Source: a bacterium
GTDB taxonomy: Bacteria > Bacillota > Clostridia > Oscillospirales > Acutalibacteraceae
Reading direction: 5' to 3'
Assembly (NCBI GenBank): GCA_020627425.1
Contig: JAHKXX010000101.1
Coordinates: 1 to 36,793, forward strand
DNA: 36,793 bases
The notes under the pieces are model-generated. The model was given only the letters and a program-made list of their open reading frames with translations. It was not told the DNA's origin and searched no databases. This document shows, in pieces, positions 6,844-36,793 of this stretch. A program made the position numbers and the translations under genes. Each line of letters opens with the position of its first letter. Within the stretch, counting starts at the first letter, position 1.

Positions 6844-6852
6844 GGAATAATG

Positions 6853-7880: not shown

Positions 7881-7887
7881 ATTTATT

Positions 7888-8403
7888 TCATTTTTTTAAT
7901 GTTTTCTTTATTACACCCGTTTTGTCAAGGGCAAGTCCTAAAAATACAAACAGAGCGCTGCTTGCAACTGACTGGATGCAGTTTGTAGGTATATCGGCTA
8001 CGGGACTTATAAAGCTGCCATAGATAAGAGAGGCAAACAGATAATAACCACCGACACAAATAATAAACCCGATAATAAGCGCGACAATGTTTCTTTTATT
8101 GATTATTTTTTCTTTTTTTGAAGTAAAGCAAAGCACTGTCAGCGATTTTATTATTACCGTCGGCAGTACCCATACTGCAAAGCCCGAAATATAATCCGAC
8201 AGTCCTGCTCCTATTGCGGACGCTGCTATAGCATAAGGGAGCGGAAGTATTGACGCGGCAATATATATAATTCCGTCGCCTATATGTATATAGCCCTGTG
8301 CCGTGGGTATATGCAGAAACGCCGTGAGAACAAATACCAGAGCTGCCATTGCTGCGGCTGTTACCATATACCTTACATTATCCTGATTCTTTCTGCGTTC
8401 CAT
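7888..8403 (-). CDS. small polytopic membrane protein, ECF-transporter S-component-like (substrate unknown)
   Basis: 171 aa, 5-6 TM helices; the HIPTAQGYIHIGDGIIY region resembles vitamin/precursor S components. No riboswitch recognised upstream. Confidence 0.5.
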   Translation of the reverse strand: MERRKNQDNVRYMVTAAAMAALVFVLTAFLHIPTAQGYIHIGDGIIYIAASILPLPYAIAASAIGAGLSDYISGFAVWVLPTVIIKSLTVLCFTSKKEKIINKRNIVALIIGFIICVGGYYLFASLIYGSFISPVADIPTNCIQSVASSALFVFLGLALDKTGVIKKTLKK

Positions 8404-8429
8404 TTTTCATCCTACCTTTCTCTCTAAAA

Positions 8430-8479
8430 CAAAAAAATCCTGTAATATCGGCGGCATAAAAGCGCGGACATTGCAGGAT
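8430..8479 (-). terminator. probable terminator after the acidic-tail membrane protein gene
   Basis: Reverse strand: ATCCTGCAAT ... ATTACAGGAT (10-bp stem, 1 mismatch, 23-nt loop) followed by T7. Confidence 0.45.
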
Positions 8480-8523
8480 CTTTATCCGATGATTAAAAAA
8501 GCTGAGACAAAGTACGCACCGGC

Positions 8524-9954
8524 TTACATATCGTCAAGCATAGACAATATTTCCGCATATGCATCATCAGTGCGCTTTTTGTCCTCGTCTTCTTCCTCTG
8601 CGTAGTCAGGTTTTCTGACGGAGGATTTTTCTTCATCTGTTTCCTCGGTGTCCGTTTCCCCGGCAACAACGGCTGTCACTTCGTCATCCAAAGGCTCAGA
8701 CTTGGTTTCTACTATACCGTCGTCCTCTACAGGCTCAGCCACAACAGGTCTTACCTGTGAAAAGTCTATCGCCTGAGTGCTTTGCTGCTGTACCGGTTCT
8801 TCAGTCACGGCTTCGGTCGTGGTCGAAGGGGCTTCGGTACTGTCTGCGTTGTCGTCGTCTGACCGGGGCAGTTCCTCGTCCGGCGTCATATCGGGCGCCT
8901 CGACGGGAGCCTCGGGCGTCTCTGCTTCATTTTCGGATTTTCCGGTCTCCTGCGTCTCTATCGCCTTATCGGTGTTGTCCGGTTCCTCGTTTGATTCTGT
9001 TATATCCTGCTCTTCTTCGTTCTCTGCATCCTTAGTAGCTTCATACGTAAGCGTGTTTTTTACAGGCTCTGTCATATTGCTGCTGTCAGCTTCAAGCTCG
9101 CCGAAATAATCGTCGTCATCATCCTCGTCCGACTGTTCTGTCGGAGCCTTCTGCATATCGTATAGCATACACAAAGCATAAAGCGAAAGCGATATATAGC
9201 AAACGCCGTTCATAATGTTTATAAGTGTAGGCTCTACTATCTCGGTATCGACATTTGTCACGGTCATAGGATAGCTCATTTTTATGAACAGGTCAACAGC
9301 AACAACCAGTCCTGCTATAAAGAAGGTATAGCCGTATACATTGGTTTTCCTTACGGCAAGGCTGTTGTTGACGCCTGCATAGAACATAGACTGATAAAGG
9401 AAAAACATAAGCAAAAGCGCGTCCGCAACCATATCAAAGATCTCCATAGACATAACGGAGCGGCTCTTGTATGTAGCAAAAAGCATTATAAACCTTGCTG
9501 CTATGCCGAGCGGCACAAGCAGGGTAAGCAGCGGCGCCTTTTTCATTCCGTTTGTACCCGTAAAGGAAATACAGCTTTCAAACAGAAGAACACAGCCTGC
9601 TACAGCCACAAGCAGATGACCCACCATTGTAGCTATAGACGCGTCTGACATTGACAGCAGATTTATAACGGATCCTCCCACCAGCATAACTGAGGATATA
9701 AATCCAAATATACCCGTAAGGATATTTTTTGAAGGTTTTGCGTTTAGTTCGACTTTTTTGTCAAGAGCGCCGAATATAAGTCCAAGCAAAAGCATAAGCA
9801 CTATACAGCCCACAAGAATACCGTTACAAACTGCGGTATCGAGAAAAAATCCCTCGCCGTGTACGTTAAACAGTGTATCGCAGATCTTTGCACAGCCGCC
9901 TATGACTGTCAGTATGAACATAGGTATCCATAATTTTTTTAATTTCATAAGCAC
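8524..9954 (-). CDS. hypothetical membrane protein with long acidic low-complexity C-terminal tail
   Basis: 476 aa. The N-terminal ~285 aa have ~8 TM helices; the C-terminal ~190 aa are D/E/T/P-rich. Starts 38 bp after the citrate synthase stop on the same strand. Confidence 0.6.
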   Translation of the reverse strand: MLMKLKKLWIPMFILTVIGGCAKICDTLFNVHGEGFFLDTAVCNGILVGCIVLMLLLGLIFGALDKKVELNAKPSKNILTGIFGFISSVMLVGGSVINLLSMSDASIATMVGHLLVAVAGCVLLFESCISFTGTNGMKKAPLLTLLVPLGIAARFIMLFATYKSRSVMSMEIFDMVADALLLMFFLYQSMFYAGVNNSLAVRKTNVYGYTFFIAGLVVAVDLFIKMSYPMTVTNVDTEIVEPTLINIMNGVCYISLSLYALCMLYDMQKAPTEQSDEDDDDDYFGELEADSSNMTEPVKNTLTYEATKDAENEEEQDITESNEEPDNTDKAIETQETGKSENEAETPEAPVEAPDMTPDEELPRSDDDNADSTEAPSTTTEAVTEEPVQQQSTQAIDFSQVRPVVAEPVEDDGIVETKSEPLDDEVTAVVAGETDTEETDEEKSSVRKPDYAEEEDEDKKRTDDAYAEILSMLDDM

Positions 9955-9992
9955 ATACTCCTTATTTTATCACTCAGAGCCGGAGCGTTTGT

Positions 9993-11381
9993 TTACTGTC
10001 CGGAAACCGCAGAGCCGCCGCGCTGCGATATAGGAGTGTATTTTTTATTATGCACCATAGACCGATAAGCCGGGCGAATTATCCTGCCGCCATAGGTCAC
10101 CTCTTCAATACGGTGAGCACACCAGCCGGCTATTCTTGACACTGCAAACAGCGGTGTAAAAAGCTCGCTCGGAATACCTAACATATCATACACAAATCCC
10201 GAATAAAAGTCAACATTTGCACAGATCACCTTTGAACTGCCCTTTACCTCTGACATTACCCTCGGGGTAAGCTTCTCTATTGTTCTGTACAGGTCAAACT
10301 CCTCGAGCATTTGCTTTTCTCCTGCCAGTTTTTCTGCGGTAGCCTTGAGAATAACTGCCCTCGGGTCGGACAGTGTATAGATTGCGTGTCCAAAGCCGTA
10401 TATCAGCCCCGTGCCGTCGCCTTTTTCTTTTCGGATTATGCCTGCCAGATAATTATATACTTCTTCTTCGTCCTTCCAGTCCTTTACGCTTTCCTTCAGT
10501 TCGGTCATCATTTTGCGGACTCTAAGGTTTGCGCCGCCGTGACGCGGTCCCTTCAGTGCGCCTATAGCGGCTGATATTGCCGAATATGTATCAGTACCGG
10601 AGGAAGAAAGCACACGCGCGGTAAAGGTAGAGTTATTGCCGCCGCCGTGCTCCGCGTGAAGTATCATACACAGATCAAGAAGCTTTGCTTCGGAGTCTGT
10701 AAACTTTGTGTCGGGTCTGAGTGCTCTCAAGATAGACTCACCGGTAGACAGGCTGTTATCCACAGGATGAAAGAACATACTCTCTCTGTCGAATGCCCTT
10801 CTCTTGACCTGATAAGCATAGGTCATGATCGTCGGCAGACAAGCAATAAGCTTTATAGACTGCTTCATAATATTCGGAAGGCTGGTATCATCCGGATTAT
10901 CATCATAGGAATAAAGACTCAGAACACTTCTGGAGAGCTTATTCATAATATCCCTTGACGGGTTTTTCAGTATCATATCCTCAGTAAAATTATCCGGCAG
11001 TTCTCTGCAGGAGCCAAGGGTCATTTTAAAGCCGTCAAGCATTTTCTTTGTAGGCAGGCTGCCAAAAAGCAGAAGCCATGCCGTTTCCTCAAACCCGAAT
11101 CTGTCTTCTTCCACACACGCGTTGACTATATCGTTTACATCTATGCCTCTGTATGTAAGCTTTCCTTCATCAGGCACGCGTTCTCCGTCAGCCATCACAA
11201 AGCCGTGTACGTTACATATATTTGTCAGTCCTGCCATAACTCCCGTACCGTCGGGGTTTCTCAGTCCGCGTTTTACTCCGTATGTCAAAAAATCTTCACT
11301 ATTAAAGCCGTTATGACTTCTGTATTCATCACACAGCTCCAGAAGCTTTTCGTTTAATTCATCTTTTCTTTCGATCATCAC
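9993..11381 (-). CDS. citrate synthase (Si-type citrate/2-methylcitrate synthase family)
   Basis: 462 aa. Family signature GFGHAIY...DPRA and the C-terminal IAGWCAHRIEE region. AAGAGG RBS upstream. Confidence 0.9.
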   Translation of the reverse strand: MMIERKDELNEKLLELCDEYRSHNGFNSEDFLTYGVKRGLRNPDGTGVMAGLTNICNVHGFVMADGERVPDEGKLTYRGIDVNDIVNACVEEDRFGFEETAWLLLFGSLPTKKMLDGFKMTLGSCRELPDNFTEDMILKNPSRDIMNKLSRSVLSLYSYDDNPDDTSLPNIMKQSIKLIACLPTIMTYAYQVKRRAFDRESMFFHPVDNSLSTGESILRALRPDTKFTDSEAKLLDLCMILHAEHGGGNNSTFTARVLSSSGTDTYSAISAAIGALKGPRHGGANLRVRKMMTELKESVKDWKDEEEVYNYLAGIIRKEKGDGTGLIYGFGHAIYTLSDPRAVILKATAEKLAGEKQMLEEFDLYRTIEKLTPRVMSEVKGSSKVICANVDFYSGFVYDMLGIPSELFTPLFAVSRIAGWCAHRIEEVTYGGRIIRPAYRSMVHNKKYTPISQRGGSAVSGQ

Positions 11382-11410
11382 TATACCTCTTTTCCCAACT
11401 CATATCCACT

Positions 11411-11439
11411 ATTTTACACCTCCCCCCTCCCCCTGTCAA
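11411..11439 (-). promoter_or_regulatory. sigma-A-type promoter abutting R4, drives citrate synthase
   Basis: Reverse strand: TTGACA (11434-11439), 17-nt spacer GGGGGAGGGGGGAGGTG, TAAAAT (11411-11416). Confidence 0.7.
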
Positions 11440-11712
11440 GCAGCGTGCCCGGCGCGTGCTCGCGCTGAGCAATTCGCGCACTGTAGTTGGTTGTGTCCTC
11501 CACTTTGTTGGCACGCGTACGAGCCGGGTTTATTGTCCCTCTCCGTCCGCGTCACGGCGCTCAGGGCGCCGCTCGTGCTGGTTTGGAGTGGCGGCAAGTA
11601 TATTTTCTACTCTACTTATTGTCTCCAAAAAACAATACAGCGAGTGTGATGTGAGTCTCTCACACTCATTATTCTTTTTTCTTTATTCTCTATTCTTTAT
11701 TCTTCTATTCTG
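11440..11712 (-). repeat. intergenic structured repeat R4 (full solo unit), P-ward on -
   Basis: + strand: GCGCG-tgct-CGCGC, TGAGCAATTCGCGCACTGT, TTGGCACGCGTACGAGCCGGGTTTATTGTCCCTCTCCGTCCGC, H1 CGGCGC-tcagg-GCGCCG (11555-11571), linker ...TTATTGTCTCC (to 11626), tail A6-CAATACAGCGAGTGTGATGTGAGTCTCTCAC plus TATTCT-rich run up to the yitJ stop at 11713. Confidence 0.9.
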
Positions 11713-13482
11713 TCATAATGATTTTATTATTTCGCTTATTACGTGCGCTCTGTTGAACGGTGTTACAAAATAGAAGCCATCGGCGTGGGGCTTTGCCGCC
11801 TGTACCAGCTCGCACGCTGCCTCTATTCCTGCTTTTTCCGCCTCGCTGCGGCTCATATCATAGTCAAACCGTTCTACAAGGCTGTCGGGGATCACCATTC
11901 CCGGTACTTCGTTTTTCATAAATTCGGCGTTTCTGCGGCTTATGACGGGCATTATTCCGACGAGTACCTTTACTCCGGTCTCTCTCGCCTTGTCGATAGA
12001 ATCAAAAGCCTCCTCCGAAAACACCGGCTGAGTAAGTACAAAGCCTGCTCCGGCATTCATTTTCTTTTGCAGTCTTTTCAGTGAATAGGGAGTTTTTTTC
12101 GGATCGGGATCATAGGCTCCGCCTATTGCTATAGGAGAGTCTGCAAACATTTCCGTATTCAGTGCAGAAATCATATTCATCAGTCTTACCGAATCTATGT
12201 TGAAAACCGGCTTTACTATACCCTTGTCGCTTTCTGCGACAGGGTCGCCCGTTACGGCAAGCACGGCGCGTATACCCTCGTTATGTGCTCCGAGCAGCAG
12301 AGAGCGCATACAGTTTATATTTCTGTCGCGGCAGCATATATGCGGCAGCACCTCTATATCCGTTTCGCGCTTTATCTTTGCCGAGCATATGACGGGGTCT
12401 GCCTTTGCCCGTCCGAGAGGAGAGTCGGACACGGTTATTATATCCACTCCGCTGTCCTTTAGTATTCTTGCGGCTGTCAGCAGCCCGGTAAAGTCAGAGC
12501 CTGACGGCGGGTCAAGCTCCGCGGCGATAATAAAGCGGTTTTCGGTCAAAGCCGAGGAAAAAGGAGCGCGCTTCTTCCTTTTGGGGTAGGCTGCTCTTTT
12601 TATCTCGGTATTTCCGGTGCCGGAGTCAAGACGGTCGGACAAAAGCCTTATAAACTTCGGTTCGGTACCGCAGCAGCCGCCGAGCGCCGACACGCCGTAG
12701 GAGAAAAACGCAGACGCCTTCTCCGCAAAGTATGACGGAGTAGAGGTAAACACTGTTCGTGAATTTTCCATTGTAGGATAGCCTGCATTCGGCATTACAG
12801 TCGTATAAAGACCCATATTTTTCAGCTCTGTAAGAAACGGCGGAGCAAAGCTGAGCATCTGTACGCTGCCGCAGCCGCAGTTAAGACCTGCTGCCGTAAG
12901 CTTTTGACGGTTATTTTTAATTTCACGAAGCAGTGCTTCTCCGGACAGACCCAGTCTTGTCAGACCGTCCGGCAGCAGTGTAAAGGACACGGCTATCTCT
13001 GCATCGGGCTTTTTTTCAAGTATATAGTCGATAGCCGGCATGACCGGCTCCAGCGATGACAGCGTCTCGAACAGGAAGTTCTCGGCGCCGCTCATAATAA
13101 ACGGGTCTATTATTTTTTTATATTCCCCGAGTATCTCCTTCCCGGAAAGCCGTGTGCTGTAAACAGCGCTGACATCGGCAAGAACTGCGGCTCTGCCGTC
13201 GGCGCAGTCGGCCGCTATATTAAACGCGGCGCTTATTATATCGGACAGCTTTTCCCTGTCGGCACCAAGAGTGATACTGTTTGCCGAAAATGTGTTTGTA
13301 CGTATCAGCGCAGCGCCTGCTTCAATATATTCACTGTGTATTTGTCTGATTATTTCGGGGTGGGTTATATTATAAAGCTCACAAAGACTGCTGTCCTGCT
13401 CGGTAAGCTTTGAAAAATAGGTCCCCATGGCTCCGTCTGCGATCACTGTTTTGTTCTGTGAAAAAAGCTGTGAAATTTTCAT
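11713..13482 (-). CDS. yitJ: bifunctional homocysteine S-methyltransferase / 5,10-methylenetetrahydrofolate reductase (YitJ-like)
   Basis: 589 aa. N-terminal Hcy-methyltransferase domain (ADGAMGT, Zn site GGCCGT) fused to a C-terminal MTHFR-like domain. Confidence 0.85.
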   Translation of the reverse strand: MKISQLFSQNKTVIADGAMGTYFSKLTEQDSSLCELYNITHPEIIRQIHSEYIEAGAALIRTNTFSANSITLGADREKLSDIISAAFNIAADCADGRAAVLADVSAVYSTRLSGKEILGEYKKIIDPFIMSGAENFLFETLSSLEPVMPAIDYILEKKPDAEIAVSFTLLPDGLTRLGLSGEALLREIKNNRQKLTAAGLNCGCGSVQMLSFAPPFLTELKNMGLYTTVMPNAGYPTMENSRTVFTSTPSYFAEKASAFFSYGVSALGGCCGTEPKFIRLLSDRLDSGTGNTEIKRAAYPKRKKRAPFSSALTENRFIIAAELDPPSGSDFTGLLTAARILKDSGVDIITVSDSPLGRAKADPVICSAKIKRETDIEVLPHICCRDRNINCMRSLLLGAHNEGIRAVLAVTGDPVAESDKGIVKPVFNIDSVRLMNMISALNTEMFADSPIAIGGAYDPDPKKTPYSLKRLQKKMNAGAGFVLTQPVFSEEAFDSIDKARETGVKVLVGIMPVISRRNAEFMKNEVPGMVIPDSLVERFDYDMSRSEAEKAGIEAACELVQAAKPHADGFYFVTPFNRAHVISEIIKSL

Positions 13483-13496
13483 AATTATATCACCCT

Positions 13497-13530
13497 GCCA
13501 AAACGGGCAAGACGAAGCACCGTCTTGCCC
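13497..13530 (-). terminator. hairpin terminator/attenuator between the yloV-like and yitJ-like genes
   Basis: GGGCAAGACG-loop-CGTCTTGCCC (13505-13530), followed on the reverse strand by GTTTTGG; short U tract, so possibly partial. Confidence 0.5.
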
Positions 13531-13554
13531 GCTGATCTTTTATTTTTATATGTG

Positions 13555-15252
13555 TTATTCTATAGACAATATGAAGTAATATACGGGCTGACCGCCGTTT
13601 ATCAAAGATACCTCTATATTGCTGTTTGTTCTGCTCTTTATGCTTTCAAGCGCTGTATTTGCCTGCGACTCGGATATTCCGTTGCCGTATATAACGGTGA
13701 CATAGGTCGAGTCTCTCTTTATCATTTCCTTAGCAAGCTTTACAACGGCGTGAACGGGATCCTTATCCTTCAGAGTCAGCTTACCGTTATTAAGACCGAT
13801 TATCTCGCCCTCTTTTATTTTCGTAGAGCCAAACTCGGAATCTCTTGCGGCGTAGGTAATGCTTCCTGTGGAAACATTTTTTGCAGCTGTTGTCATATAC
13901 TCGGTATTCAGCTCATCAGTAGCATCCTCCGAGTAGGACAGCATAGCGACCAGACCCTGCGGCACTGTTCTTGTCGGTATTATTATGACAGTTCTGTCGG
14001 TTACCAGAGGTACTACCTGTTCTGCTGCGAGAAGTATATTCTTGTTGTTGGGAAGCAGGAAAACCGTGCTGGCAGGTGTTGCCATAACAGCCTCGAGCAA
14101 ATCCTCCGTACTGGGGTTCATACTCTGACCGCCGTTTACTATATGCTGACAACCCAGATCGCGGAAAACAGTCTCGAGTCCGTCGCCCGAAGCCACTGCA
14201 ACAAATCCCGTACCGGGTACTGCCGCAACAGGCTTTAAAGCTTCTTTTCTGCGCTGCTCCTCTTCGCTCTGTTCTACTGCCTTCTGATATTCCTCAGCAG
14301 CCTTTCTGTGTTGCTCCTTCATATTCTCTACCTTTACCGCGAGCAGCTGACCGAACTTCAGACCCTCCTGAAGAGCTTTACCGGGGTTTTCGGTATGAAC
14401 ATGTACTTTTATTATATCGTCGTCCTCGGCAACAACAACGCAGTCACCGATAGTCTCCAGATAAGAGCGCAGAGCCGAGGGATTTTTTGTTATCTCAGGA
14501 TCCCTGCCTATAATAAGCTCTGTACAGTATGTAAAGTTGATAACGGTGTCAAACTGTGCAGCGGCATTTACAAAGAACTCGTCCCTGCCGTCTCCTCTGA
14601 GAGAAGGCGCAGCGGCTGCCTCCTCCTCGTCGAAGTCTACCATAACGCCGTCACGAAGCAGCGATACCATACCGTCGAATATAACGCAAAGGCCCTTGCC
14701 GCCTGCATCCACAACTCCTGCCTTTTTCAGCACGGGAAGCATTTCGGGAGTCTTGTCAAGCGCTTCGTGTGCGGCTGAGGCTATGGCGCTGAGTACGATT
14801 ATGGGATCGTTATCCTCCTCGCACGCTGCCCTTCCTGCTTCGTAAGCCATTCTTGCTACGGTAAGTATTGTACCCTCTGTCGGGTTCATAACAGCTCCGT
14901 AGGCGGTATCCACGCCTATTTTCAAAGCGTCGACAAATATTTTACCGTCAGCCTCGTCCTTGCCTGCAAGACCCTTTGATATTCCTCTGAACAGCAGTGA
15001 CAGTATAACGCCCGAGTTTCCTCTTGCACCCTTCAGCATTGCCGAAGCGGCAGCCTTTGATACGTCCGCTATACTCTGGGCATTGGTCTCCTCCATGGTC
15101 TTCCTTGCGGATTCCATAGTCATAGACATATTTGTGCCTGTATCGCCGTCCGGCACAGGGAAAATGTTCAGCGCGTTGATTTCTGCCTTTTGATTTATGA
15201 TATTGTTTGCTCCTGATATGATCGCGTTTTTGTAGCTTGAACCGTTTATCAT
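13555..15252 (-). CDS. yloV: DAK2 domain-containing protein (YloV-like, DhaL-fold)
   Basis: 565 aa; N-terminal DGDTGTNM motif of DhaL/DAK2 domains; length typical of YloV. Confidence 0.8.
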   Translation of the reverse strand: MINGSSYKNAIISGANNIINQKAEINALNIFPVPDGDTGTNMSMTMESARKTMEETNAQSIADVSKAAASAMLKGARGNSGVILSLLFRGISKGLAGKDEADGKIFVDALKIGVDTAYGAVMNPTEGTILTVARMAYEAGRAACEEDNDPIIVLSAIASAAHEALDKTPEMLPVLKKAGVVDAGGKGLCVIFDGMVSLLRDGVMVDFDEEEAAAAPSLRGDGRDEFFVNAAAQFDTVINFTYCTELIIGRDPEITKNPSALRSYLETIGDCVVVAEDDDIIKVHVHTENPGKALQEGLKFGQLLAVKVENMKEQHRKAAEEYQKAVEQSEEEQRRKEALKPVAAVPGTGFVAVASGDGLETVFRDLGCQHIVNGGQSMNPSTEDLLEAVMATPASTVFLLPNNKNILLAAEQVVPLVTDRTVIIIPTRTVPQGLVAMLSYSEDATDELNTEYMTTAAKNVSTGSITYAARDSEFGSTKIKEGEIIGLNNGKLTLKDKDPVHAVVKLAKEMIKRDSTYVTVIYGNGISESQANTALESIKSRTNSNIEVSLINGGQPVYYFILSIE

Positions 15253-15286
15253 GATTGCACTTCCTTATTCGGTCGGTTTGTTTTTC

Positions 15287-15547
15287 TCAGCGTATTTCAA
15301 CAATAAGCTTCATAGCGGTGCGCTCGGCTCCGTCTATTTCTATGCTGGTGAATGCAGGTATACATACAAGATCTATTCCCATCGGTGCAAGGTAGCCTCT
15401 GGCTACTGCAATAGATTTGAGTGCCTGATTGGTGGCTCCGGCGCCTACTGCCTGAACCTCTACACAGCCGTAATCTCTTATAACGCCTGCAATAGCTCCC
15501 GCAACCGAATTTGGTGATGATTTAGACGACACCTTTAAAATCTCCAT
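15287..15547 (-). CDS. spoVS: stage V sporulation protein S
   Basis: 86 aa MEILKVSSKSSPNSVAGAIAGVIRDYG...IPAFTSIEIDGAERTAMKLIVEIR, near-colinear with Bacillus SpoVS; lies downstream of ymdB as in Bacillus. Confidence 0.9.
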   Translation of the reverse strand: MEILKVSSKSSPNSVAGAIAGVIRDYGCVEVQAVGAGATNQALKSIAVARGYLAPMGIDLVCIPAFTSIEIDGAERTAMKLIVEIR

Positions 15548-15744
15548 TTTTATTATCCCCCTGAAAACTCTTAGAATTTAATGATATACGGGCTTCAATA
15601 ATTATACCGCCTACTGTAACTCTGTTCTCTCGTTCGCAAAACAAAATAGAATTACAGAATTATTTACACGCCCTATAATATAATATATGCAAAATGAATA
15701 TTATGCAAGCGATTTGTGTATAATTTTTTGTAAATTGAAAAAAA

Positions 15745-16515
15745 TTATACAATTTCAAGGCGCTTGACCGCCAAAGTCTTACCGGATTGGTTATCTATGG
15801 TAAATTTTATGCAGTTCATTTTACATGTGCCATCGGCAAGCTCAAATCTGACCGGAAGCTTTTGGGTAAATTTTTTTACTGCAAGCTCAGGCTTAACGCC
15901 GAGGACAGATTCCACAGGTCCGGTCATACCGACATCGGTAATATACCCGGTGCCGTCGGAAAAGATCCTCTCGTCAGCAGTCTGAACGTGAGTATGGGTA
16001 CCGAACACAGCAGACACTCTGCCGTTGAGATAATATGCCATAGCGAGTTTTTCCGCAGTAGCCTCGGCATGGAAATCAACGACAACAATTCGGGTATCAA
16101 TTTCCTTTAGCAGTCTGTCTACAGTAGAGAACGGGTCATCAAGGCTTTCGAGAAACATACAGCCGAGCAGATTTATCACCGCAATTTTTATTCTGCCCAT
16201 ATCATATATAACAAAGCCCTTACCCGGAGTAGTACCATCGGGGTAGTTGGCAGGTCTTAAAAGGCACTCCTCGCTATCGAACAACGGATAGCACTCTTTT
16301 CTTCTGAATGTATGGTTACCGTTTGTAATAACGTTCACGCCGCTTGTAAAAAGGTGCTGTGCCGATTTCGGAGTTATACCGTTTCCGTCTGCGGAGTTTT
16401 CTCCGTTTGCCACAACAAAATCTATCTCCTCCTCCTTCTTTAGTCTCGGGAGGCGTTCTCTGAGAAAGTTACAGCCCACAAGTCCGCACACATCGCCTAT
16501 CGCCAACACGTTCAA
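15745..16515 (-). CDS. ymdB: YmdB-like metallophosphoesterase (2',3'-cyclic-nucleotide 2'-phosphodiesterase family, TIGR00282)
   Basis: 256 aa, TTG start. GDVCG, NGENSADGNGIT, DFHAEATAEK and GTHTHVQT metallophosphatase motifs. Confidence 0.85.
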   Translation of the reverse strand: MNVLAIGDVCGLVGCNFLRERLPRLKKEEEIDFVVANGENSADGNGITPKSAQHLFTSGVNVITNGNHTFRRKECYPLFDSEECLLRPANYPDGTTPGKGFVIYDMGRIKIAVINLLGCMFLESLDDPFSTVDRLLKEIDTRIVVVDFHAEATAEKLAMAYYLNGRVSAVFGTHTHVQTADERIFSDGTGYITDVGMTGPVESVLGVKPELAVKKFTQKLPVRFELADGTCKMNCIKFTIDNQSGKTLAVKRLEIV

Positions 16516-16560
16516 TTATTATCACTTCATTCCTATCTAACAATATTCCGCAATAAAACC

Positions 16561-16589
16561 ATTTTAATACATTCCCCCCACTCTGTCAA
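16561..16589 (-). promoter_or_regulatory. sigma-A-type promoter abutting R5, drives ymdB
   Basis: Reverse strand: TTGACA (16584-16589), 17-nt spacer GAGTGGGGGGAATGTAT, TAAAAT (16561-16566). Confidence 0.7.
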
Positions 16590-16775
16590 CCCGGTGCCCG
16601 GGCGGCGCGTGCTCGCGCTGAGCAATTCGCGCTCTCGAATTGGTGTTGCCGCCGACTTTATTGGCACGCGGTCAAGCCTGGTTTATTATACCTCTCCGTC
16701 CGCGTCACGGCGCTTACGCGCCGCTCGTGCTGCATCGTTATGCAGGCAAATGTGTTTGTCTATTCTATTTGGTGT
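16590..16775 (-). repeat. intergenic structured repeat R5 (short unit), P-ward on -
   Basis: + strand: CCCGG-tgc-CCGGG (16590-16602), GCGCG-tgct-CGCGC, TGAGCAATTCGCGC, TTGGCACGCGG, GGTTTATTATACCTCTCCGTCCGCG, H1 CGGCGC-ttac-GCGCCG (16708-16723), GCTCGTGCTG, degenerate linker ...TTTGTCTATTCTATTTGGTGTAAC. Confidence 0.9.
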
Positions 16776-16869
16776 AACTGATTATTGTTTATATAATATA
16801 CAGTCAGTATACTATTTTATAACACTACTAATAGTATATTTATAACCGAAAGTAATATCTTGTAGACAA

Positions 16870-16915
16870 CAAAAAACACATCACCGTCATGATGATGTGT
16901 TTTGTACTTTTTATT
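16870..16915 (-). terminator. rho-independent terminator (bidirectional in form) downstream of the yabE-like gene and R6
   Basis: ACACATCA-ccgtcatga-TGATGTGT (16876-16900), flanked by A6 on the left (T6 on the reverse strand) and a T-rich run on the right. Confidence 0.7.
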
Positions 16916-16929
16916 TTGTTGGATCATTC

Positions 16930-17095
16930 AGCAGAAAAGCCAAATGAACTTGTCATTACTCCAAACCAGCACGAGCGGCACCCTGAGTGCCGCGACGCGG
17001 ACTGAGAGGTACAATAAACCCAACTCGACCGCGTGCCAACAAAGCGGGCGGTAACACACACCCGAGTGCGCGAATTGCTCAGCGCGAGCACGCGC
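16930..17095 (+). repeat. intergenic structured repeat R6 (short unit), P-ward on +, ends exactly at the yabE-like stop codon
   Basis: ...CTCCAAACCAGCACGA, H1 GCGGCAC-cctga-GTGCCGC (16975-16993), GACGCGGACTGAGAGGTACAATAAACCCAACTCGACCGCGTGCCAACAAAG...GAGTGCGCGAATTGCTCA, H2 GCGCG-agca-CGCGC ending at 17095. TTA (reverse-strand stop) at 17096-17098. Confidence 0.9.
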
Positions 17096-18358
17096 TTAGT
17101 TGTAGGTTGCGCTTTCGGGAACACCGCTGAGGACGTATATTGTAACGTCACGTCTGCCGAATACGCAGCACTCGTCAAGAGTGTCATAGTACAGGTCAAC
17201 GATAGCGGTACCTTCCCATAATGCTCCGCCTGTGTCACCTGCTACGGCATAACCGTAAACTACCTGTCCGTCGTTTGATACTATATAAAGTATTGAACCG
17301 TAGGGGATGATGTCGGGGTCAACGGCTACAACACCATAACGTGCTGCTCTGCCTGTTGCGGTAAGAGGATGCTCCTCCTCTGAATAATATGCTGTACCCG
17401 AACCTGTGAGTACCTGTGTGTAATCTACTGTGTTTCCGTTGGGATCTGTAAGAGTCTTTTCTGTCTCGTTGACGGTTATTGCTCCGCTGGAGGTTGAGAA
17501 ACGGTTTACTCTTTCCTTGGTTCCTACCAGTACTACCTCGTTTACAGGCTCCTTTACGACCTCGCTGCTAAGCTTTTTGCTTTCAACGACCTTGCCGTTT
17601 ACTATCTTGTCATTGGTTACTATCTTGCGCTCGCCCTCGACGCCGCTTCTTATTACTTTTCTCTCGCCGTCGTACAGTTCGTCGCTTGACTGTGTCTCTG
17701 TCTTGTAGCCTATCTTTTCTATCTTTGTGTTTTTCTTATAGGTCGTGTTCTCAATCTTTATCTCGAGTCCGTTTTCAACCTTCTGGTTACCATTTGTTAA
17801 AAGCTTGTCGTTCTTATTAAGCTCTATATCAAGATACTTAAGAGCCTGCTGAACTGTACCCTCGGGTACTTCCTTGCTGTATATCTTGCCTCTGAGATTT
17901 ACCTTTACAGTGTAAAAACGCTTTATGGTTATCTCTGAGCTTTCCGAGCCGCCGGATGCTTTCTCGGACAGTGAAGCGGAATCATTCTGGCTGAGTGTCA
18001 TTCCTGCTGCCTTGAGAGCGTCAGCTACAGTTCCTTCATCAAATGTAATAAATCTGCTTTCTTTGCCGTCCATTGAAAACGCACGCATTATAGAAATGTT
18101 TACGTTGTTAGCCTCGGCATCGGTGCGTACAAGCTTGTCGTTGCTGCCAAGCTCGACTCCTGCGCGTACAAGTATAGCGTCAGTGTCGGAATTCATAGTG
18201 TTGATAGTCATTGTCTTTTCGCCGTCTGTTACTGTAACGGTTTTTGATAACGCCGTAACCGAGAACGCAGCCGTAAGGCATATAGTACCCATAAGCGCAA
18301 CCGAAACTGCTTTTTGAAGTCCCTTATAGCGATTGTTGTTTTGACCGTTCATAATCAA
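17096..18358 (-). CDS. yabE: YabE-like cell-wall protein (DUF348 repeats + G5 domain + 3D/RlpA-like domain)
   Basis: 420 aa; signal/anchor helix; G5-like middle region; C-terminal 3D domain (TATGRAARYGVVAVDPDIIPYGS...AGDTGGAL...VDLYY). Canonical promoter at 18418-18446. Confidence 0.8.
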   Translation of the reverse strand: MIMNGQNNNRYKGLQKAVSVALMGTICLTAAFSVTALSKTVTVTDGEKTMTINTMNSDTDAILVRAGVELGSNDKLVRTDAEANNVNISIMRAFSMDGKESRFITFDEGTVADALKAAGMTLSQNDSASLSEKASGGSESSEITIKRFYTVKVNLRGKIYSKEVPEGTVQQALKYLDIELNKNDKLLTNGNQKVENGLEIKIENTTYKKNTKIEKIGYKTETQSSDELYDGERKVIRSGVEGERKIVTNDKIVNGKVVESKKLSSEVVKEPVNEVVLVGTKERVNRFSTSSGAITVNETEKTLTDPNGNTVDYTQVLTGSGTAYYSEEEHPLTATGRAARYGVVAVDPDIIPYGSILYIVSNDGQVVYGYAVAGDTGGALWEGTAIVDLYYDTLDECCVFGRRDVTIYVLSGVPESATYN

Positions 18359-19049: not shown

Positions 19050-19667
19050 CTATTCACAAATAATCAGCTCTTTTGCATAGGGCAGCTTTGAAATATGATC
19101 ACAGAAAGTATGCCATTCGTCGAGCTTGTGGGATCTTCGCGCATTATAAATACCGATAAGGTTTTCATAATTCATTGTACAGGTGCGCATCTGGTTATAG
19201 CTTGACGGAAGAAGCTGGATAATATCGTACCAGATCTGTTTATCCTTTGTCTCGACAAACTGTTTTCTTAAGTTTTCAAGATAGTCTATGAGCGTCTGCA
19301 TAAACGAGAGAGTCTGCTCTGACATCTTATCGGTGCTGAAATGAGACATTTCAAAGGGAGCGGAGGTTATCTTGTGCATTGTACTTGTTGAATTTGCGAC
19401 GGTTCCTACTTTATAGGTATCGTATTCCTTCCACCAGTACATAGGCGCGGTAATATCCATTGTAACAAAGATCTGTCGGAGAAACTTTCTGTGGTCGCTG
19501 CCTGCCTTACGAAGTCTTACGGCAAGCGAGAGGTCGTTTTCTCCAAAGACGAAGTTACCGTTTTCATCAAAGCTGCTATCCATTCTTCCCCAGCTGTTCA
19601 TAGGGTTTCGGGCGCCTCTGATAGCGTTGTCGAAGTTCATAGCCTTCATATTATTTATTTCAAGCAT
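19050..19667 (-). CDS. thyX: ThyX-like (flavin-dependent thymidylate synthase family) protein, divergent
   Basis: Track ORF 19050-19751 trimmed to the ATG at 19665-19667, preceded by AAAGGAAC; the longer form would overlap the SDR gene by 70 nt. RGARNPMNSW...GSDHRKFLRQ...YWWKEYDTYK...NSTSTMH resembles short ThyX-like proteins, but I could not see the canonical RHR...S motif. Confidence 0.5.
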   Translation of the reverse strand: MLEINNMKAMNFDNAIRGARNPMNSWGRMDSSFDENGNFVFGENDLSLAVRLRKAGSDHRKFLRQIFVTMDITAPMYWWKEYDTYKVGTVANSTSTMHKITSAPFEMSHFSTDKMSEQTLSFMQTLIDYLENLRKQFVETKDKQIWYDIIQLLPSSYNQMRTCTMNYENLIGIYNARRSHKLDEWHTFCDHISKLPYAKELIICE

Positions 19668-19680
19668 ATTTAAGTTCCTT

Positions 19681-20433
19681 TCAGCCCTTCTTTTTCTGGA
19701 AGGTATAGCATATATGCGCGGCAGCCTTTTCGGGGCAAAGGCGCTTTGCAAATTTGAGGCATTTCATTTTTACTGTAGGTATCACATATAGTTTGCCGTC
19801 CATAACTCCGTCAATACCCTGCTGAGCGACTGTCTTGCTGTCGATAGGTGAAGCTGCAAAGCTGACATTAGCGACATCATTAAACTCGGTATCTACGGGT
19901 CCGGGGCAAAGCGCGCAGATATGAACGCTGCTGTTGCGGCGTTTAAGCTCCTCATATATAGCTCCGGTAAGGCTTACTACATAGTTTTTGGTCGCATAGT
20001 AGGTAGCCATAAGCGGACCGGGGAAAAATCCGGCTATAGAAGCGACGTTCAAAATATACCCACGGTTTCTGTTGACGAAGTCCTGTAGAAAAAGCTTGGT
20101 AAGGATATGTACTGCCGTTATGTTTGTCTGTATCATTTTCATTTCTGTAGACAGAGGTGTATCGGTAAATCTGCCGTAAAGACCGAAGCCGGCACAGTTC
20201 ACAAGCATTTGTATCTCGTCGTCAGTCTGGAGCACCTCGTGAAGCTTCATACACTCGTCTACGTGTGATACATCACACCGAACGCAGCGTGCGTGCTTGC
20301 CGAGTTCTTTTTTTAGCTCCATAAGTCTGTCGGCTCTGCGTGCGACGAGTATAACGTCCCATCCTCTGCACACCAGTGCTCTTGCTATATCTCTGCCTAT
20401 TCCGGAGCTTGCTCCGGTAACTACTGCTTTCAT
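19681..20433 (-). CDS. SDR family oxidoreductase
   Basis: 250 aa; TGASSGIG cofactor motif and YYATK catalytic motif. 4-bp overlap with the tatD stop. Confidence 0.85.
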   Translation of the reverse strand: MKAVVTGASSGIGRDIARALVCRGWDVILVARRADRLMELKKELGKHARCVRCDVSHVDECMKLHEVLQTDDEIQMLVNCAGFGLYGRFTDTPLSTEMKMIQTNITAVHILTKLFLQDFVNRNRGYILNVASIAGFFPGPLMATYYATKNYVVSLTGAIYEELKRRNSSVHICALCPGPVDTEFNDVANVSFAASPIDSKTVAQQGIDGVMDGKLYVIPTVKMKCLKFAKRLCPEKAAAHICYTFQKKKG

Positions 20434-21243: not shown

Positions 21244-21272
21244 ATTATACCCCATAATCCCCCCTATTTCAA
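21244..21272 (-). promoter_or_regulatory. sigma-A-type promoter abutting R7, drives tatD-SDR-thyX-like
   Basis: Reverse strand: TTGAAA (21267-21272), 17-nt spacer TAGGGGGGATTATGGGG, TATAAT (21244-21249). Confidence 0.7.
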
Positions 21273-21530
21273 GCGGCGGAGTGCCTCCGCGGTCAATTCA
21301 CGCACTCTGGTTGGTGTTACCCCTACCTTATCAGCACGCGTACGAGTTTGGTTTATTGTACCTCTACATCCGCACCACAGCGCATAGAGCGCTGCTTGTG
21401 CTGGTTGGGAGTGAAGATTAAAATGCTTTCTACTCTATTCAATTTCCCCAAAAAACAGTACGGTGAGTATGATGTGAGTTTCTCACAATTGTTAATTTTT
21501 AAGTTTTAAGGTTTCCGTCTTCAGTAAACA
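21273..21530 (-). repeat. intergenic structured repeat R7 (full solo unit), P-ward on -
   Basis: + strand: GCGGAG-tgc-CTCCGC, GGTCAATTCACGCACTCT, ATCAGCACGCGTACGAGTTTGGTTTATTGTACCTCTACATCCGC, H1 CAGCGC-ataga-GCGCTG (21378-21394), linker ...CTACTCTATTCAATTTCCCC, tail A6-CAGTACGGTGAGTATGATGTGAGTTTCTCAC...GTCTTCAGTAAA. Fills the whole gap between the PLC-like stop (21543) and the tatD promoter. Confidence 0.9.
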
Positions 21531-24888: not shown

Positions 24889-24910
24889 CCGGCAAAGTAC
24901 TCTGTCCGTA

Positions 24911-24940
24911 ATTATACCACACCCTCCACCCAAAAAACAA
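24911..24940 (-). promoter_or_regulatory. sigma-A-type promoter abutting R8, drives pcrA (weak -35)
   Basis: Reverse strand: TTGTTT (24935-24940), 18-nt spacer TTTGGGTGGAGGGTGTGG, TATAAT (24911-24916). Confidence 0.55.
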
Positions 24941-25142
24941 CCCGGTGCCCGGGCGGCGTGCCTCCGGCGCGTGCTCGCGCTGAGCAATTCGCGCACTCTG
25001 ATTGATGTTACCACCTACCTATCGGCACGCGTACGAGTGGGGTTTATTGTCCCTCTCCGTCCGCGCCGTGCCGCACAGGGCGGCACTTGACGCTGCTTTA
25101 GAGTGGAGGCGAGTGTGTTTGTCTATTTTATTTATCGTCTCC
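24941..25142 (-). repeat. intergenic structured repeat R8 (short unit, tail-less arm of dimer R8/R9), P-ward on -
   Basis: + strand: CCCGG-tgc-CCGGG (24941-24953), GCGCG-tgct-CGCGC, TGAGCAATTCGCGCACTCT, ATCGGCACGCGTACGAGTGGGGTTTATTGTCCCTCTCCGTCCGCG, H1 GTGCCGC-acagg-GCGGCAC (25068-25086), linker ...TTTGTCTATTTTATTTATCGTCTCC ending at 25142. Confidence 0.9.
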
Positions 25143-25450
25143 GTTTTTAAAAAATACTGAAGACTTAAGACTGAAAACTGAAAAATGAATAATGATTGTG
25201 TGAACTCACATCATACTTGCCGTATTGCCTTTTTGGAGACAATAAGTAAAATAGAGAAATATACCAGCCTTCACTATTAAGCAGCACGAGCGCCGCCCTG
25301 AGCGGCGTGACGCGGAAAAAGAGGTAGAATAAACCAAGCTTGAGACGTTGCTCTGTAGTAGGCGGTAACAATAATTTGCCACGCTGCGGCGTGCCGTGCA
25401 CGCCCTTGCCGCCGTGCGGCAAGAGAGAGTTGACAGCACAGGCACTGTGT
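25143..25450 (+). repeat. intergenic structured repeat R9 (full unit, B subfamily), P-ward on +
   Basis: Tail GTTTTTAAAAAATACTGAAGAC...CTCACATCATACTTGCCGTATTGCCTTTTT, linker GGAGACAATAAGTAAAATAGAGAAATATACC. H1 CGCCGC-cctga-GCGGCG (25291-25307). Diverged core; extra hairpins GGCGTGC-cgt-GCACGCC (25388-25404) and CTTGCCGC-cgt-GCGGCAAG (25405-25423); TTGACA; H2 CACAG-gca-CTGTG (25437-25449). Confidence 0.85.
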
Positions 25451-25451
25451 G

Positions 25452-25480
25452 TTGTTTTTTTTGAAAATGTGTGATATTAT
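25452..25480 (+). promoter_or_regulatory. extended -10 promoter for the response regulator/kinase/htrA operon
   Basis: TTGTTT (25452-25457), 17-nt spacer, TGaTATTAT (TG at 25472-25473, TATTAT at 25475-25480). The TTGACA inside R9 (25430-25435) has no -10 partner. Confidence 0.5.
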
Positions 25481-25518
25481 GTATGTATAGATCATATAAC
25501 AGAGGGGTGTACGGTAAT

Positions 25519-27774: not shown

Positions 27775-29256
27775 ATGCCTGACAACAGATTTACAGACGA
27801 CTCAAACAATCCGATACCGCAGAGCAGAGACAATATCTACAGCGGCTCGTACAACATCGACCCTTACGGTACAGCAAACAACGGTTCAAACGGATACAAC
27901 CCTTACAATAACAGAGGCTATAGCAGAATGGATCGCGGCGAGCTTTCCCGTCAGGTTGACGAGCGATACAACAGCATAAACGGCAACCAATACTATGCGG
28001 ACTACAATAATTACGGGTACAATTACAGTGTAAGTCCCCTGCCGCCCGAGCCTCCGAAAAAGAAGCACACCGGGCTGAAGGCTTTTGTGATCTCGTTTTT
28101 GTGCGTACTGCTTGCCGTTGTAATAGGTCTTTCGGTTTTACTTATATACAACATAGGAACAACCGACACAAAACCCAAAAAGTCAAAGGATGAGTCCTAC
28201 GACTACAATTCCGACACAAGCTACAGCACAGAGACCTCGTTCACAAGCGCACCCGAAGCAAGTGCAAATCTTAACGGTCCACAGGTAAGCATATCGGAGT
28301 CAAACGGCGATGATGAAGTATCCGATGAAGTGAACGGAGCATATCTGAAGGTATCAAAAAGTATAGTATGCATAACCTCCTATGAAGCCGGAACGGATTT
28401 TACCGTGACCGGGAACGGCGAAGGCTCCGGAATAGTAATAACCTCAGACGGCTATATAGCCACCAACAGCCATGTAGTCAACGACTCGACCACGACCGGT
28501 GTTATGATAACGCTGAACGACGGTTCGCAGTATCTGGGCACGATAATCGGCATAGACAAAAAAACAGACCTTGCGGTAATAAAGATAGACGCAAAGGATC
28601 TGTCTCCGGCAGAGTTTTCCGACTCCGACAAGCTATATGTCGGACAGCCTGCCTATGCTATCGGAAACCCCGGCGGCTCGGCTTTTTCCAATTCTCTTAC
28701 CACCGGCAGTATATCGGCTCTGAACAGGATATTATCCACAAACGGCTATGTAAAGTACATACAGACAGACGCCGCCATAAACCCCGGCAACTCCGGCGGC
28801 GCGCTCATTGACAAATACGGCAGCGTAGTAGGTATGAACACCGCAAAGCTGGTGGCTACGGACTACGAGAGTATGGGCTTTGCAATACCGAGCAACACTG
28901 TTGTATCCATAGTAAACAAGCTGATAAAATACGGCTATGTAAACGACAGGGGTACTCTCGGTATAGAAGGCGCTACCTCTACTCTGTACAATGCAAAAAT
29001 GAATGGTGTTCCCCAGGGTATGATACTGACAAAAATCGAAAGCTACAGCCCTCTCGCGAAAACCAACGTCAGAGAGCAGGACATCATCACTATGATCAAC
29101 GGAACAACCATAACCAATGTTAACGAATTTACCGACATCCTGAAGGACTACAAGCCCGGTGACAGTGTTACCCTTACGCTCTTCCGTCCCTCCTCCCGCA
29201 GCATCTCTGAAACTTTCAGCTACAACGTCACCGTAAAACTGATCCCCGACCGCTAG
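27775..29256 (+). CDS. HtrA/DegP-family S1C serine protease with PDZ domain, membrane-anchored
   Basis: AGGAGG RBS. N/Y-rich cytoplasmic head, one TM helix, catalytic TNSHVV ... D ... GNSGGAL, C-terminal PDZ-like region. Confidence 0.85.
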   Translation: MPDNRFTDDSNNPIPQSRDNIYSGSYNIDPYGTANNGSNGYNPYNNRGYSRMDRGELSRQVDERYNSINGNQYYADYNNYGYNYSVSPLPPEPPKKKHTGLKAFVISFLCVLLAVVIGLSVLLIYNIGTTDTKPKKSKDESYDYNSDTSYSTETSFTSAPEASANLNGPQVSISESNGDDEVSDEVNGAYLKVSKSIVCITSYEAGTDFTVTGNGEGSGIVITSDGYIATNSHVVNDSTTTGVMITLNDGSQYLGTIIGIDKKTDLAVIKIDAKDLSPAEFSDSDKLYVGQPAYAIGNPGGSAFSNSLTTGSISALNRILSTNGYVKYIQTDAAINPGNSGGALIDKYGSVVGMNTAKLVATDYESMGFAIPSNTVVSIVNKLIKYGYVNDRGTLGIEGATSTLYNAKMNGVPQGMILTKIESYSPLAKTNVREQDIITMINGTTITNVNEFTDILKDYKPGDSVTLTLFRPSSRSISETFSYNVTVKLIPDR

Positions 29257-29430
29257 GCGCTGTGCCTGCGCTGTCAATTCGCGCAATGTAGCTTTTGTTA
29301 CCACCTACTTTTTTGGCACGCGGTCAAGCTTGGTCTATTGTCCCTCTCCGTCCGCGTCACGGCGCTTACGCGCCGCTCGTGCTGGTTTGGAGTGGAGGAC
29401 GGTATATTTGTCTGTTCTGTTTTGTAGACC
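29257..29430 (-). repeat. intergenic structured repeat R10 (short unit, tail-less arm of dimer R10/R11), P-ward on -, begins directly after the htrA stop
   Basis: TAG at 29254-29256, then + strand GCGCTG-tgc-CTGCGC (one mismatch), TGTCAATTCGCGCAATGT, TTGGCACGCGGTCAAGCTTGGTCTATTGTCCCTCTCCGTCCGCG, H1 CGGCGC-ttac-GCGCCG (29360-29375), GCTCGTGCTGGTTTGGAGTGG, linker ...TTTGTCTGTTCTGTTTTGTAGACC. Confidence 0.9.
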
Positions 29431-29742
29431 GACTTTAATAATTTACTGAAGACTGAAGACTTAAGACTGAAAAATGAATAATGATAGTGAAAATCTCACC
29501 TCAGACTTGCTGTACTGTTTTTTTGGAGACAATGAGTAGAGCAGACAAACACACTTGCCTCCTCTCCAAACCAGCGCTAAGCGGCACTTTGTGTGCCGTG
29601 ACGCGGACGGTATCGTACAATAAACCCAACTTGAGACGGTGCTCTGAAGTCGGCGGTAACAAGTACCAGCCACGCTCCGGCGTGCCGTGCACGCCCTTGT
29701 CGCCGTGCGGCAAGAGAGAGTCGACAGCGGCGGCACGCCGCC
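29431..29742 (+). repeat. intergenic structured repeat R11 (full unit, B subfamily), P-ward on +
   Basis: Tail GACTTTAATAATTTACTGAAGAC...CTCACCTCAGACTTGCTGTACTGTTTTTTT, linker GGAGACAATGAGTAGAGCAGACAAAC. H1 CGGCAC-tttgt-GTGCCG (29582-29598). Core GCGGACGGTATCGTACAATAAACCCAACTTGAGACGGTGCTC. Extra hairpins 29679-29695 and 29696-29714. TCGACA; H2 GCGGCG-gca-CGCCGC (29727-29741). Confidence 0.9.
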
Positions 29743-29771
29743 TTGACAGGGGGATGGGAGAGAGGTATAAT
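29743..29771 (+). promoter_or_regulatory. sigma-A-type promoter abutting R11, drives the YkuD-like gene
   Basis: TTGACA (29743-29748), 17-nt spacer GGGGGATGGGAGAGAGG, TATAAT (29766-29771). Confidence 0.75.
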
Positions 29772-36537: not shown

Positions 36538-36567
36538 ATTATACCCCCGGCGTGCCGCCCCTGTCAA
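36538..36567 (-). promoter_or_regulatory. sigma-A-type promoter abutting R12, drives purL(-mreB)
   Basis: Reverse strand: TTGACA (36562-36567), 18-nt spacer GGGGCGGCACGCCGGGGG, TATAAT (36538-36543). Confidence 0.7.
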
Positions 36568-36745
36568 GCGGAGTGCCTCCGCGGTCGATTCGCGCACTCG
36601 AATTGGTAGTATCCCTACCTTGTGGCACGCGTACGAGCGGGGTTTATTGTCCCTCTCCGTCCGCGCCGTGCCGCACAGGGCGGCACTTGTCGCTGCTTTG
36701 ATGTGAGAATAAGTGTATTTGTCTTTTCCGCTTGGTGTATCACAC
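36568..36745 (-). repeat. intergenic structured repeat R12 (short unit as far as visible), P-ward on -
   Basis: + strand: GCGGAG-tgc-CTCCGC (36568-36582), GGTCGATTCGCGCACTCG, GTGGCACGCGTACGAGCGGGGTTTATTGTCCCTCTCCGTCCGCG, H1 GTGCCGC-acagg-GCGGCAC (36668-36686), degenerate linker ...GTATTTGTCTTTTCCGCTTGGTGTATCAC. Confidence 0.9.
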
Positions 36746-36793
36746 TAAATCGCGTTACTTGCACCTATTCCAAAACACCCAGAATTATTTTAC

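Follow-up and report, generated by a model that had tools for sequence, protein, structure and literature searches.

A covarying hairpin in a dense, promoter-associated interspersed repeat of an uncultured gut bacterium of the Clostridia

The hairpin stems of REPINs vary by compensatory changes (PMC3116915). Group-3 REPs are perfect 8-bp palindromes with 3-nt loops and a conserved head, and their folded single-stranded DNA is recognised strand-specifically (PMC8266576). The BOX elements of Streptococcus pneumoniae (boxA-boxB(n)-boxC) occur close to gene starts, differ in length between strains, have predicted stem-loops and can modify gene ends (PMC3049150). Correia elements, other MITEs and putative mobile promoters are interspersed repeats that bring or create promoters at unrelated genes (PMC3575422; PMC3049150). 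Here we describe a repeat from a window, the whole stretch of 36,793 nt that was analysed. We read it as a structured interspersed repeat, REP/BIME/BOX-like and promoter-associated, which is unusually dense and plastic.

The window is a chromosomal contig of a Firmicute with housekeeping genes, among them recD2, comF, citrate synthase, a homocysteine methyltransferase/MTHFR fusion, fakA, ymdB, tatD, pcrA, a two-component system, htrA and purL. Two ORFs matched no Pfam family (8524-9954 on the minus strand, 476 aa, and 19050-19751 on the minus strand, 233 aa). Repeat finding and a profile search gave exactly 12 full copies of an intergenic repeat of about 200-250 nt (modules R1 to R12, Table 1), and two partial copies were found besides (2695-2765 and 6770-6832). 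The modules are mosaic, are about 230 nt in size and make up 8.7% of the contig. All copies were aligned in one sense, here termed promoter-ward since it faces the gene boundary next to the copy. In this alignment a 7-bp hairpin, H1, occupied the same columns in all 12 window copies. A sequence-only reading of the window had listed a hairpin in each copy; its 12 positions agreed with ours to within one outer pair, and the stem sequences it gave were all recovered in the promoter-ward alignment. The copy that it flagged, 25068-25086, reads GTGCCGC ACAGG GCGGCAC on the plus strand. The arm-swapped stems that it described are real as well, since R1 and R8 carry exchanged arms around the same loop (CCTGT in both, promoter-ward sense). 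The arm swap is not a simple inversion of the hairpin, as the orientation of the loop is unchanged. It had further noted GNRA loops in one orientation only. R3, R5 and R10 do have a GTAA loop promoter-ward, but this tells little about the strand, because such loops are few (3 of 12 window copies and 4 of 32 copies overall) and no loop can be GNRA on both strands.

Table 1. Repeat modules and H1 hairpins in the window, with gene context for modules and arm, loop and arm for hairpins.
Feature	Coordinates	Strand	Context or sequence
Module R1	2764-2976	+	Located with nhmmer; points to promoter 2964-2993 and recD2 operon
Module R2	6316-6549	-	3' end overlaps last comF codons, stop at 6361
Module R3	6551-6771	+	Followed by partial 3' duplicate 6770-6832, T-run hairpin 6821-6835 and promoter 6853-6881
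Module R4	11428-11671	-	Upstream of promoter 11439-11411 and citrate synthase
Module R5	16588-16827	-	Upstream of promoter 16589-16561 and ymdB
Module R6	16899-17096	+	Terminal hairpin adjoins stop codon of G5-domain gene
Module R7	21261-21493	-	Upstream of promoter 21272-21244 and tatD
Module R8	24941-25191	-	Upstream of pcrA
Module R9 (3' 'variant c')	25191-25428	+	Upstream of response-regulator operon
Module R10	29244-29481	-	Terminal hairpin adjoins htrA stop codon (29256)
Module R11 (3' 'variant c')	29479-29719	+	Upstream of 12/12 consensus promoter 29743-29771 and ykuD-like gene
Module R12	36560-36789	-	Upstream of 12/12 consensus promoter 36567-36538 and purL; contig ends inside R12
H1 of R1	2840-2858	+	GCGGCAC CCTGT GTGCCGC
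H1 of R2	6426-6444	-	GTGCCGT CCTGT ACGGCAC (promoter-ward sense)
H1 of R3	6650-6667	+	GCGGCGC GTAA GCGCCGT
H1 of R4	11554-11572	-	GCGGCGC CCTGA GCGCCGT
H1 of R5	16707-16724	-	GCGGCGC GTAA GCGCCGT
H1 of R6	16975-16993	+	GCGGCAC CCTGA GTGCCGC
H1 of R7	21377-21395	-	GCAGCGC TCTAT GCGCTGT
H1 of R8 (flagged copy)	25068-25086	-	GTGCCGC CCTGT GCGGCAC
H1 of R9	25290-25308	+	GCGCCGC CCTGA GCGGCGT
H1 of R10	29359-29376	-	GCGGCGC GTAA GCGCCGT
H1 of R11	29581-29599	+	GCGGCAC TTTGT GTGCCGT
H1 of R12	36668-36686	-	GTGCCGC CCTGT GCGGCAC
H1-like hairpin of truncated 13th copy (2695-2765, tandem, before R1)	2745-2759	+	GCGGCA CCA TGCCGC

Further copies came from two sources. Open frames of 50-90 codons are frequent on the reverse strand of the repeat, so a protein collection was searched with a profile of these spurious translations; six 'proteins' matched and their contigs were retrieved. 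Contigs carrying a near-identical YmdB were the second source. This gave 20 new copies from at least eight samples and, with the 12 window copies, a set of 32. The reverse-strand frame was rejected as coding ('LSILFIVS'-like peptides), because it contains frameshifting indels, has no conserved start and is interrupted by stops in several copies. Of the 20 new copies, which come from other gut-metagenome contigs, 19 carry H1; in the remaining one, L42b, a 1-nt deletion affects the 5' arm. Apart from L42b, only L39c is imperfect, with a C.A mismatch (2/32 in all).

RNAalifold predicted H1 unaided on 23 copies. When H1 and a second helix of 4 bp were scored in these copies, 97% of the cells were paired and 26 cells were changed on both sides. 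None of 500 shuffles reached the observed pairing and covariation, and sliding the 3' partners by 1-3 columns gave 17.5-73% pairing with at most two cells changed on both sides. Over all 32 copies the H1 pairs were 99-100% paired, and five of the seven pairs had changes on both sides (CG19/UA12, GC29/AU3, GC18/CG13, GC25/AU7 and CG26/UA1). A covariance model was built from 15 non-window copies and scored out of sample on the 12 window copies. They reached 64-88 bits with the seven H1 pairs versus 48-74 bits without them, and each of the 12 gained 10-20 bits.

H1 is conserved by compensatory changes. The sequence-only reading had proposed that both arms change together while pairing is kept, and this is borne out by the structural alignment and the covariance model, also in copies outside the window. 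The selection on a folded RNA or single-stranded DNA for which it argued is supported too, with the caveats that G.U pairs are few and that copies exchange segments. Because the inner stem is nearly without G.U and segments are exchanged, much of the 'covariation' is reassortment of whole hairpin alleles, and neutral palindrome correction is a remaining, unlikely alternative. The signal is not simply a subfamily effect, since the 3' 'variant c' (R9, R11, L38, L41 and L46b) is joined to four different H1 alleles. The H1 alleles differ stepwise, by one pair at a time (CGA, CGG, CCG and TCG at stem positions 2, 4 and 6), with a single C.A intermediate, L39c. H1 is very probably a real, selected hairpin in a new repeat family.

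The repeat copies are mosaics, and orthologous sites in strains of about 97% identity carry different cores. Contig L042 is 96.9% identical to window positions 6770-16605. At the R4 site, L042 and the window share an essentially identical AT-rich 5' part and promoter, but the core of about 195 nt differs, L042 having another H1 allele, a 26-nt insertion and another H2 (see below). The R3/R2 site shows the same pattern of identical flanks but replaced cores. When the sites of R4, R3, R2 and R5 were compared (window 11428-11671, 6316-6771 and 16588-16827 versus L042:5011-5372, L042:9820-10400, L043-L046 and L002), the flanks were about 100% identical and the cores were replaced, in strains that are about 96-97% identical. 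At least three alleles occur at the site upstream of ymdB: that of L042-L046 is shared by five independent assemblies, L047 has the window allele, and a third was found only in L002. Assembly chimeras are an unlikely source of the swapped cores, since independent samples and assemblers yielded the same alleles and the flanks are orthologous on both sides. The copy at the R4 site of L042, L42a, is closest to R8 (88%). Within the window, copies are 56-82% identical to each other, the best pair reaching about 82-83% over the core. The partners of the four inverted doublets in the window are 64-75% identical and are no more alike than non-partners.

The modules have one fixed polarity and order, namely a 5' hairpin with a T-run, a purine-rich block, H1, conserved blocks and H2 units. 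The 5' end is a weak terminator-like hairpin plus T-run, and AT-rich 7-nt tandem repeats lie on this side in some copies. Arrays with a 7-nt period are found at window 25150-25190, 29445-29478, 6512-6545 and 11680-11712 and at L038:1700-1760, and their units differ by locus (GACTGAA/GACTTAA, GAATAAA/GAATAGA and GCAATGG/GCAATTA). The purine-rich conserved block 5' of H1 reads GGAGACAATAAG..., and H1 itself is flanked by ..AAG/GAG and G(A/G)CGCGGA. Conserved blocks 3' of H1 are GACGCGGA..ACAATAAACC, CGCGTGCC, GGCGGTAAC and GTGCGCGAATTG. H1 has no U-tract that would make it an intrinsic terminator (GACGCGGA follows promoter-ward and CTCGTGCTGG on the reverse strand), and a terminator scan called none of the H1 hairpins. 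The 26-nt insertion, TACCCCAAGGGCACTTCCTTCGGGCG, is identical in four copies from two samples (three in L036, and L042:5160-5200) and interrupts H1 in its 3' arm. The inserted segment is itself a small hairpin whose loop contains GCAC, and a G.T pair makes the 3' arm whole again. An extended helix around H1 was found in some flank haplotypes only (73% of cells paired) and was therefore rejected as a general feature of H1.

Each module ends in one to three H2 units, which consist of TYGAC, one further base and a perfect palindrome of 5-8 bp around a GCA loop. Stem sequences of H2 vary between copies and tandem duplication of units is frequent (L037, L045 and window 6770-6832). Examples are window 6821-6835, 24940-24954, 29257-29271, 21276-21290 and 36568-36582, and L037:4600-4720. 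Three H2 hairpins are followed by T-runs and look terminator-like. The pentamer GGCAC/GTGCC occurs at 12.2 per kb in the modules versus 1.3 per kb in the rest of the window.

The H2 end of the module adjoins a gene boundary, in most cases the -35 of a promoter and in others a stop codon. The promoters that follow modules are near-consensus sigma-70 promoters (TTGACA-N17-TATAAT) with a G-rich spacer that is related across loci. Promoters with related spacers stand before unrelated genes at 29743-29771, 36538-36567, 11411-11439, 16561-16589 and 21244-21272 and at L037:4600-4632, which suggests that the promoter once spread with the repeat. Ten promoter regions were recognised in the window, and nine of them have a module directly upstream; a consensus promoter without a module is found at 18446-18418. 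All nine single copies with a downstream gene point towards it, and the polarity does not follow the replication strand. In L037 the module is followed by the promoter, and the FMN riboswitch of the rib operon starts about 6 nt after the TATAAT. The mRNA start is thus downstream of the repeat and H1 is not in the leader RNA; the module is upstream of the transcription start. A leader or riboswitch-like RNA of the downstream gene was rejected for this reason and because the downstream genes are unrelated. No promoter-ward promoter inside the module recurs across copies.

The repeat also touches or overlaps gene 3' ends (6316-6361, 17093-17096 and 29254-29256). The last 15 or so codons of comF are repeat sequence supplied by R2, and an H2 hairpin immediately follows the stop codons of the G5-domain gene and htrA. 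Ordinary intrinsic terminators are present at convergent gene ends of the window. Between the inverted R5 and R6 there is a strong bidirectional intrinsic terminator (16873-16903; 13-bp stem, A- and T-run flanks), and the copy in L039 is preceded by a similar one at 3372-3400.

The module is similar to REP, BIME and REPIN sequences in being a high-copy extragenic palindromic repeat that occurs in tandem and inverted clusters and varies between strains, and in having a hairpin kept by compensatory changes. The H2 units resemble group-3 REPs, with perfect palindromes and 3-nt loops after a conserved head (PMC8266576). However, TYGAC precedes the H2 units here instead of a GTAG head, and the low identity of the doublet partners differs from the co-evolving arms of inverted REP doublets. 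The module is also unlike REP and REPIN in its length, its long conserved non-palindromic blocks, its polarity tied to the adjacent promoter and its Firmicute host. No RAYT was encoded on the retrieved short contigs of the lineage. With BOX the module shares the composite architecture in a Firmicute, a variable number of internal sub-units (the H2 units here), a place near gene starts, length differences between strains, predicted stem-loops and an ability to alter gene ends. BOX is thought to act co-transcribed with genes, whereas the module lies upstream of the mapped promoter, and its density (12 copies in 37 kb) is far above that of BOX. BOX was compared by description, and Rfam gave no sequence relationship (0 matches). 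The homologous G-rich spacer of the promoters after the modules is reminiscent of mobile promoters and Correia elements, but here the promoter part is stable at each locus and the upstream core is swapped. A MITE of the Correia, RUP or bcr1 type was rejected, as no terminal inverted repeats join the ends of the single modules R4, R7 and R12; near-identical recent copies were not found in the window either. Target-site duplications were not detectable. The sites of close strains are filled with another core and distant relatives lack junction synteny, which left no clean empty site for comparison. Integron attC sites occur one after each mobile cassette ORF and have RYYYAAC/GTTRRRY ends. The modules were rejected as attC sites because the flanking genes are housekeeping genes (purL, pcrA, gltA and ymdB) and the alignment contains no such ends.

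The evidence on the strand of the hairpin and on RNA versus DNA is mixed. We put the probability that H1 acts at the DNA level as a folded single strand at roughly 45%. The family would then behave like REP/BIME/BOX-type interspersed repeats that once spread with a promoter as a 'mobile promoter' cassette and that recombination between copies now maintains and reshuffles. Both H1 and the H2 palindromes might be retained because one DNA strand must fold, and it might be this folded strand that is recognised or processed during the copying, exchange or stabilisation of cores. H1 would not be a regulatory RNA of the downstream gene. The DNA-level reading draws on unit duplication, hairpin insertion, core exchange and the almost purely Watson-Crick stems. 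Against it, there is no sign of recent transposition: the modules have no near-identical copies, terminal inverted repeats or GTAG head, and no dedicated enzyme was found in the window or on the retrieved contigs. The polarity of the module is set by the neighbouring gene, and thus a transcription-linked role fits at least as well as a DNA-level role; an RNA role may be the alternative. Several observations count against the DNA-level reading and would favour an RNA on the promoter-ward strand, formed by read-through, in which H1 and H2 stop or trim transcripts or protect them from exonucleases, so that the module would insulate the strong promoter behind it from the operon upstream. The outer H1 pair is G.T on the promoter-ward strand in 17 of 32 copies. 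The U.G pairs of the extended helix in some flank haplotypes and the G.T pair of the insertion-bearing copies are valid on that strand only, and the second small helix has C-to-U changes that favour it. Four copies have GUAA tetraloops and three H2 hairpins have T-runs. Purines make up 58% of the promoter-ward strand, compared with 55% of gene sense strands. Folding of the H1 region is slightly more favourable promoter-ward (-18.7 versus -17.8 kcal/mol, with 15 copies better versus 7; z-score of the core -1.6 forward versus -0.9 reverse), but overall folding is only weakly better than that of shuffles and the inner stems are nearly without G.U pairs. Moreover, the terminator-like hairpin and T-run before the core should leave little read-through to H1, nothing upstream transcribes into the module in divergent doublets, and R2, R6 and R10 face gene 3' ends, so that they would be read as 3' UTRs in the opposite sense. 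Canonical terminators also exist elsewhere in the window. We therefore regard such an RNA as unlikely, though worth keeping in mind.

An RNA from the other strand is improbable. The two most conserved blocks read TTGGCA-N17-TATTGT/TATTAT on the reverse strand, at the same column in 19 of 31 copies (for example window 29313-29341 and 16661-16689 on the plus strand, 17011-17039 on the minus strand, 11508-11536 on the plus strand and 2876-2904 on the minus strand), and the spacer is 17 nt in 18 copies and 16 nt in L36c. This is the only recurrent promoter-like match on either strand. If it fired away from the gene, a short RNA of 140-210 nt would carry H1 about 10 nt from its 5' end and would stop at the 5' hairpin and T-rich stretch or at a central bidirectional terminator like the one between R5 and R6; a flanking helix in about ten copies has G.U pairs that are valid only on the reverse strand. 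However, the motif fits 9-10 of 12 consensus positions, against 11-12 for the real promoters here, and one such match per module is about the chance expectation. The five 'variant c' copies have lost its -35 and seven others have a weaker one, the bases that never vary are GCA and not the TTG of a -35, and 17 copies would have A.C as the outer H1 pair on this strand. Overall the match is modest, and a quarter of the copies have lost it. The pairing might also be kept without any selection on folding, if intrastrand templated repair preserved a quasi-palindrome and short-tract gene conversion transferred its alleles together. The nearly perfect Watson-Crick stems with very few wobble intermediates, the directly observed exchange of segments and the distance of only 4-5 nt between the arms, which would be transferred together, are all consistent with this. 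Nevertheless, H1 is at the same position in 32/32 copies despite 17-44% divergence elsewhere, the outer G.T has persisted uncorrected in 17 copies, the loop orientation has survived a three-pair arm swap, and there is a single chimeric allele (L39c) although exchange breakpoints lie within about 40 nt of H1; we consider such a neutral origin doubtful. Finally, a double-stranded palindromic site for a dimeric DNA-binding protein upstream of promoters would agree with the fixed position relative to promoters and the conserved flanking blocks. Such a site should have conserved half-sites, yet the half-sites vary at five of seven positions while remaining complementary, and we give this possibility very little credence.

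If our reading of the repeat is correct, the family would be among the densest structured repeat families in bacteria, taking up about 9% of a 37-kb chromosomal stretch, and it would join three things that are mostly studied separately: hairpin-constrained interspersed repeats, promoter propagation and very fast intergenic exchange between strains. It would offer a natural system for testing whether its hairpins serve the host, by insulation or promoter context, or only the repeat itself. A bolder view, which we hold to be a long shot, is that nearly every operon of this bacterium is fronted by a cassette of terminator, hairpin core and promoter whose cores are continually exchanged between loci by dedicated ssDNA-hairpin machinery, or that each cassette fires a short divergent RNA beginning at H1. 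Either would be an undescribed, genome-wide programmed way of organising or tuning promoters.

The repeat was compared with known families and searched for in other genomes. Rfam 15 had no match in the window at the gathering score, a permissive scan of 24900-25500 returned only chance miRNA-like matches, and the sole Rfam match in the related loci was the FMN riboswitch; H1 and the repeat were therefore rejected as a known RNA family at both thresholds. DNA pattern scans of GTDB species genomes and JGI metagenomes gave chance matches only, and the repeat had no match in plasmids, phages and viral contigs. Neither a transposase nor a RAYT or other dedicated enzyme was found in the window or on the retrieved short contigs of the lineage. 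Outside the species cluster, YmdB identity reaches 73-75% in the best homologues, and these relatives have plain AT-rich spacers and no module; among the more distant matches, the named ones are from Acutalibacteraceae MAGs. The family is thus previously undescribed and lineage-restricted, and its host is an uncultured gut bacterium of the Clostridia, with Acutalibacteraceae as its closest named relatives. Short-read assemblies of this lineage are probably interrupted by the repeat, which is probably also why they consist of repeat-ended fragments and why genome catalogues lack the lineage. The public contigs of this organism (the window, L002 and L043-L048) start or stop inside repeat copies.
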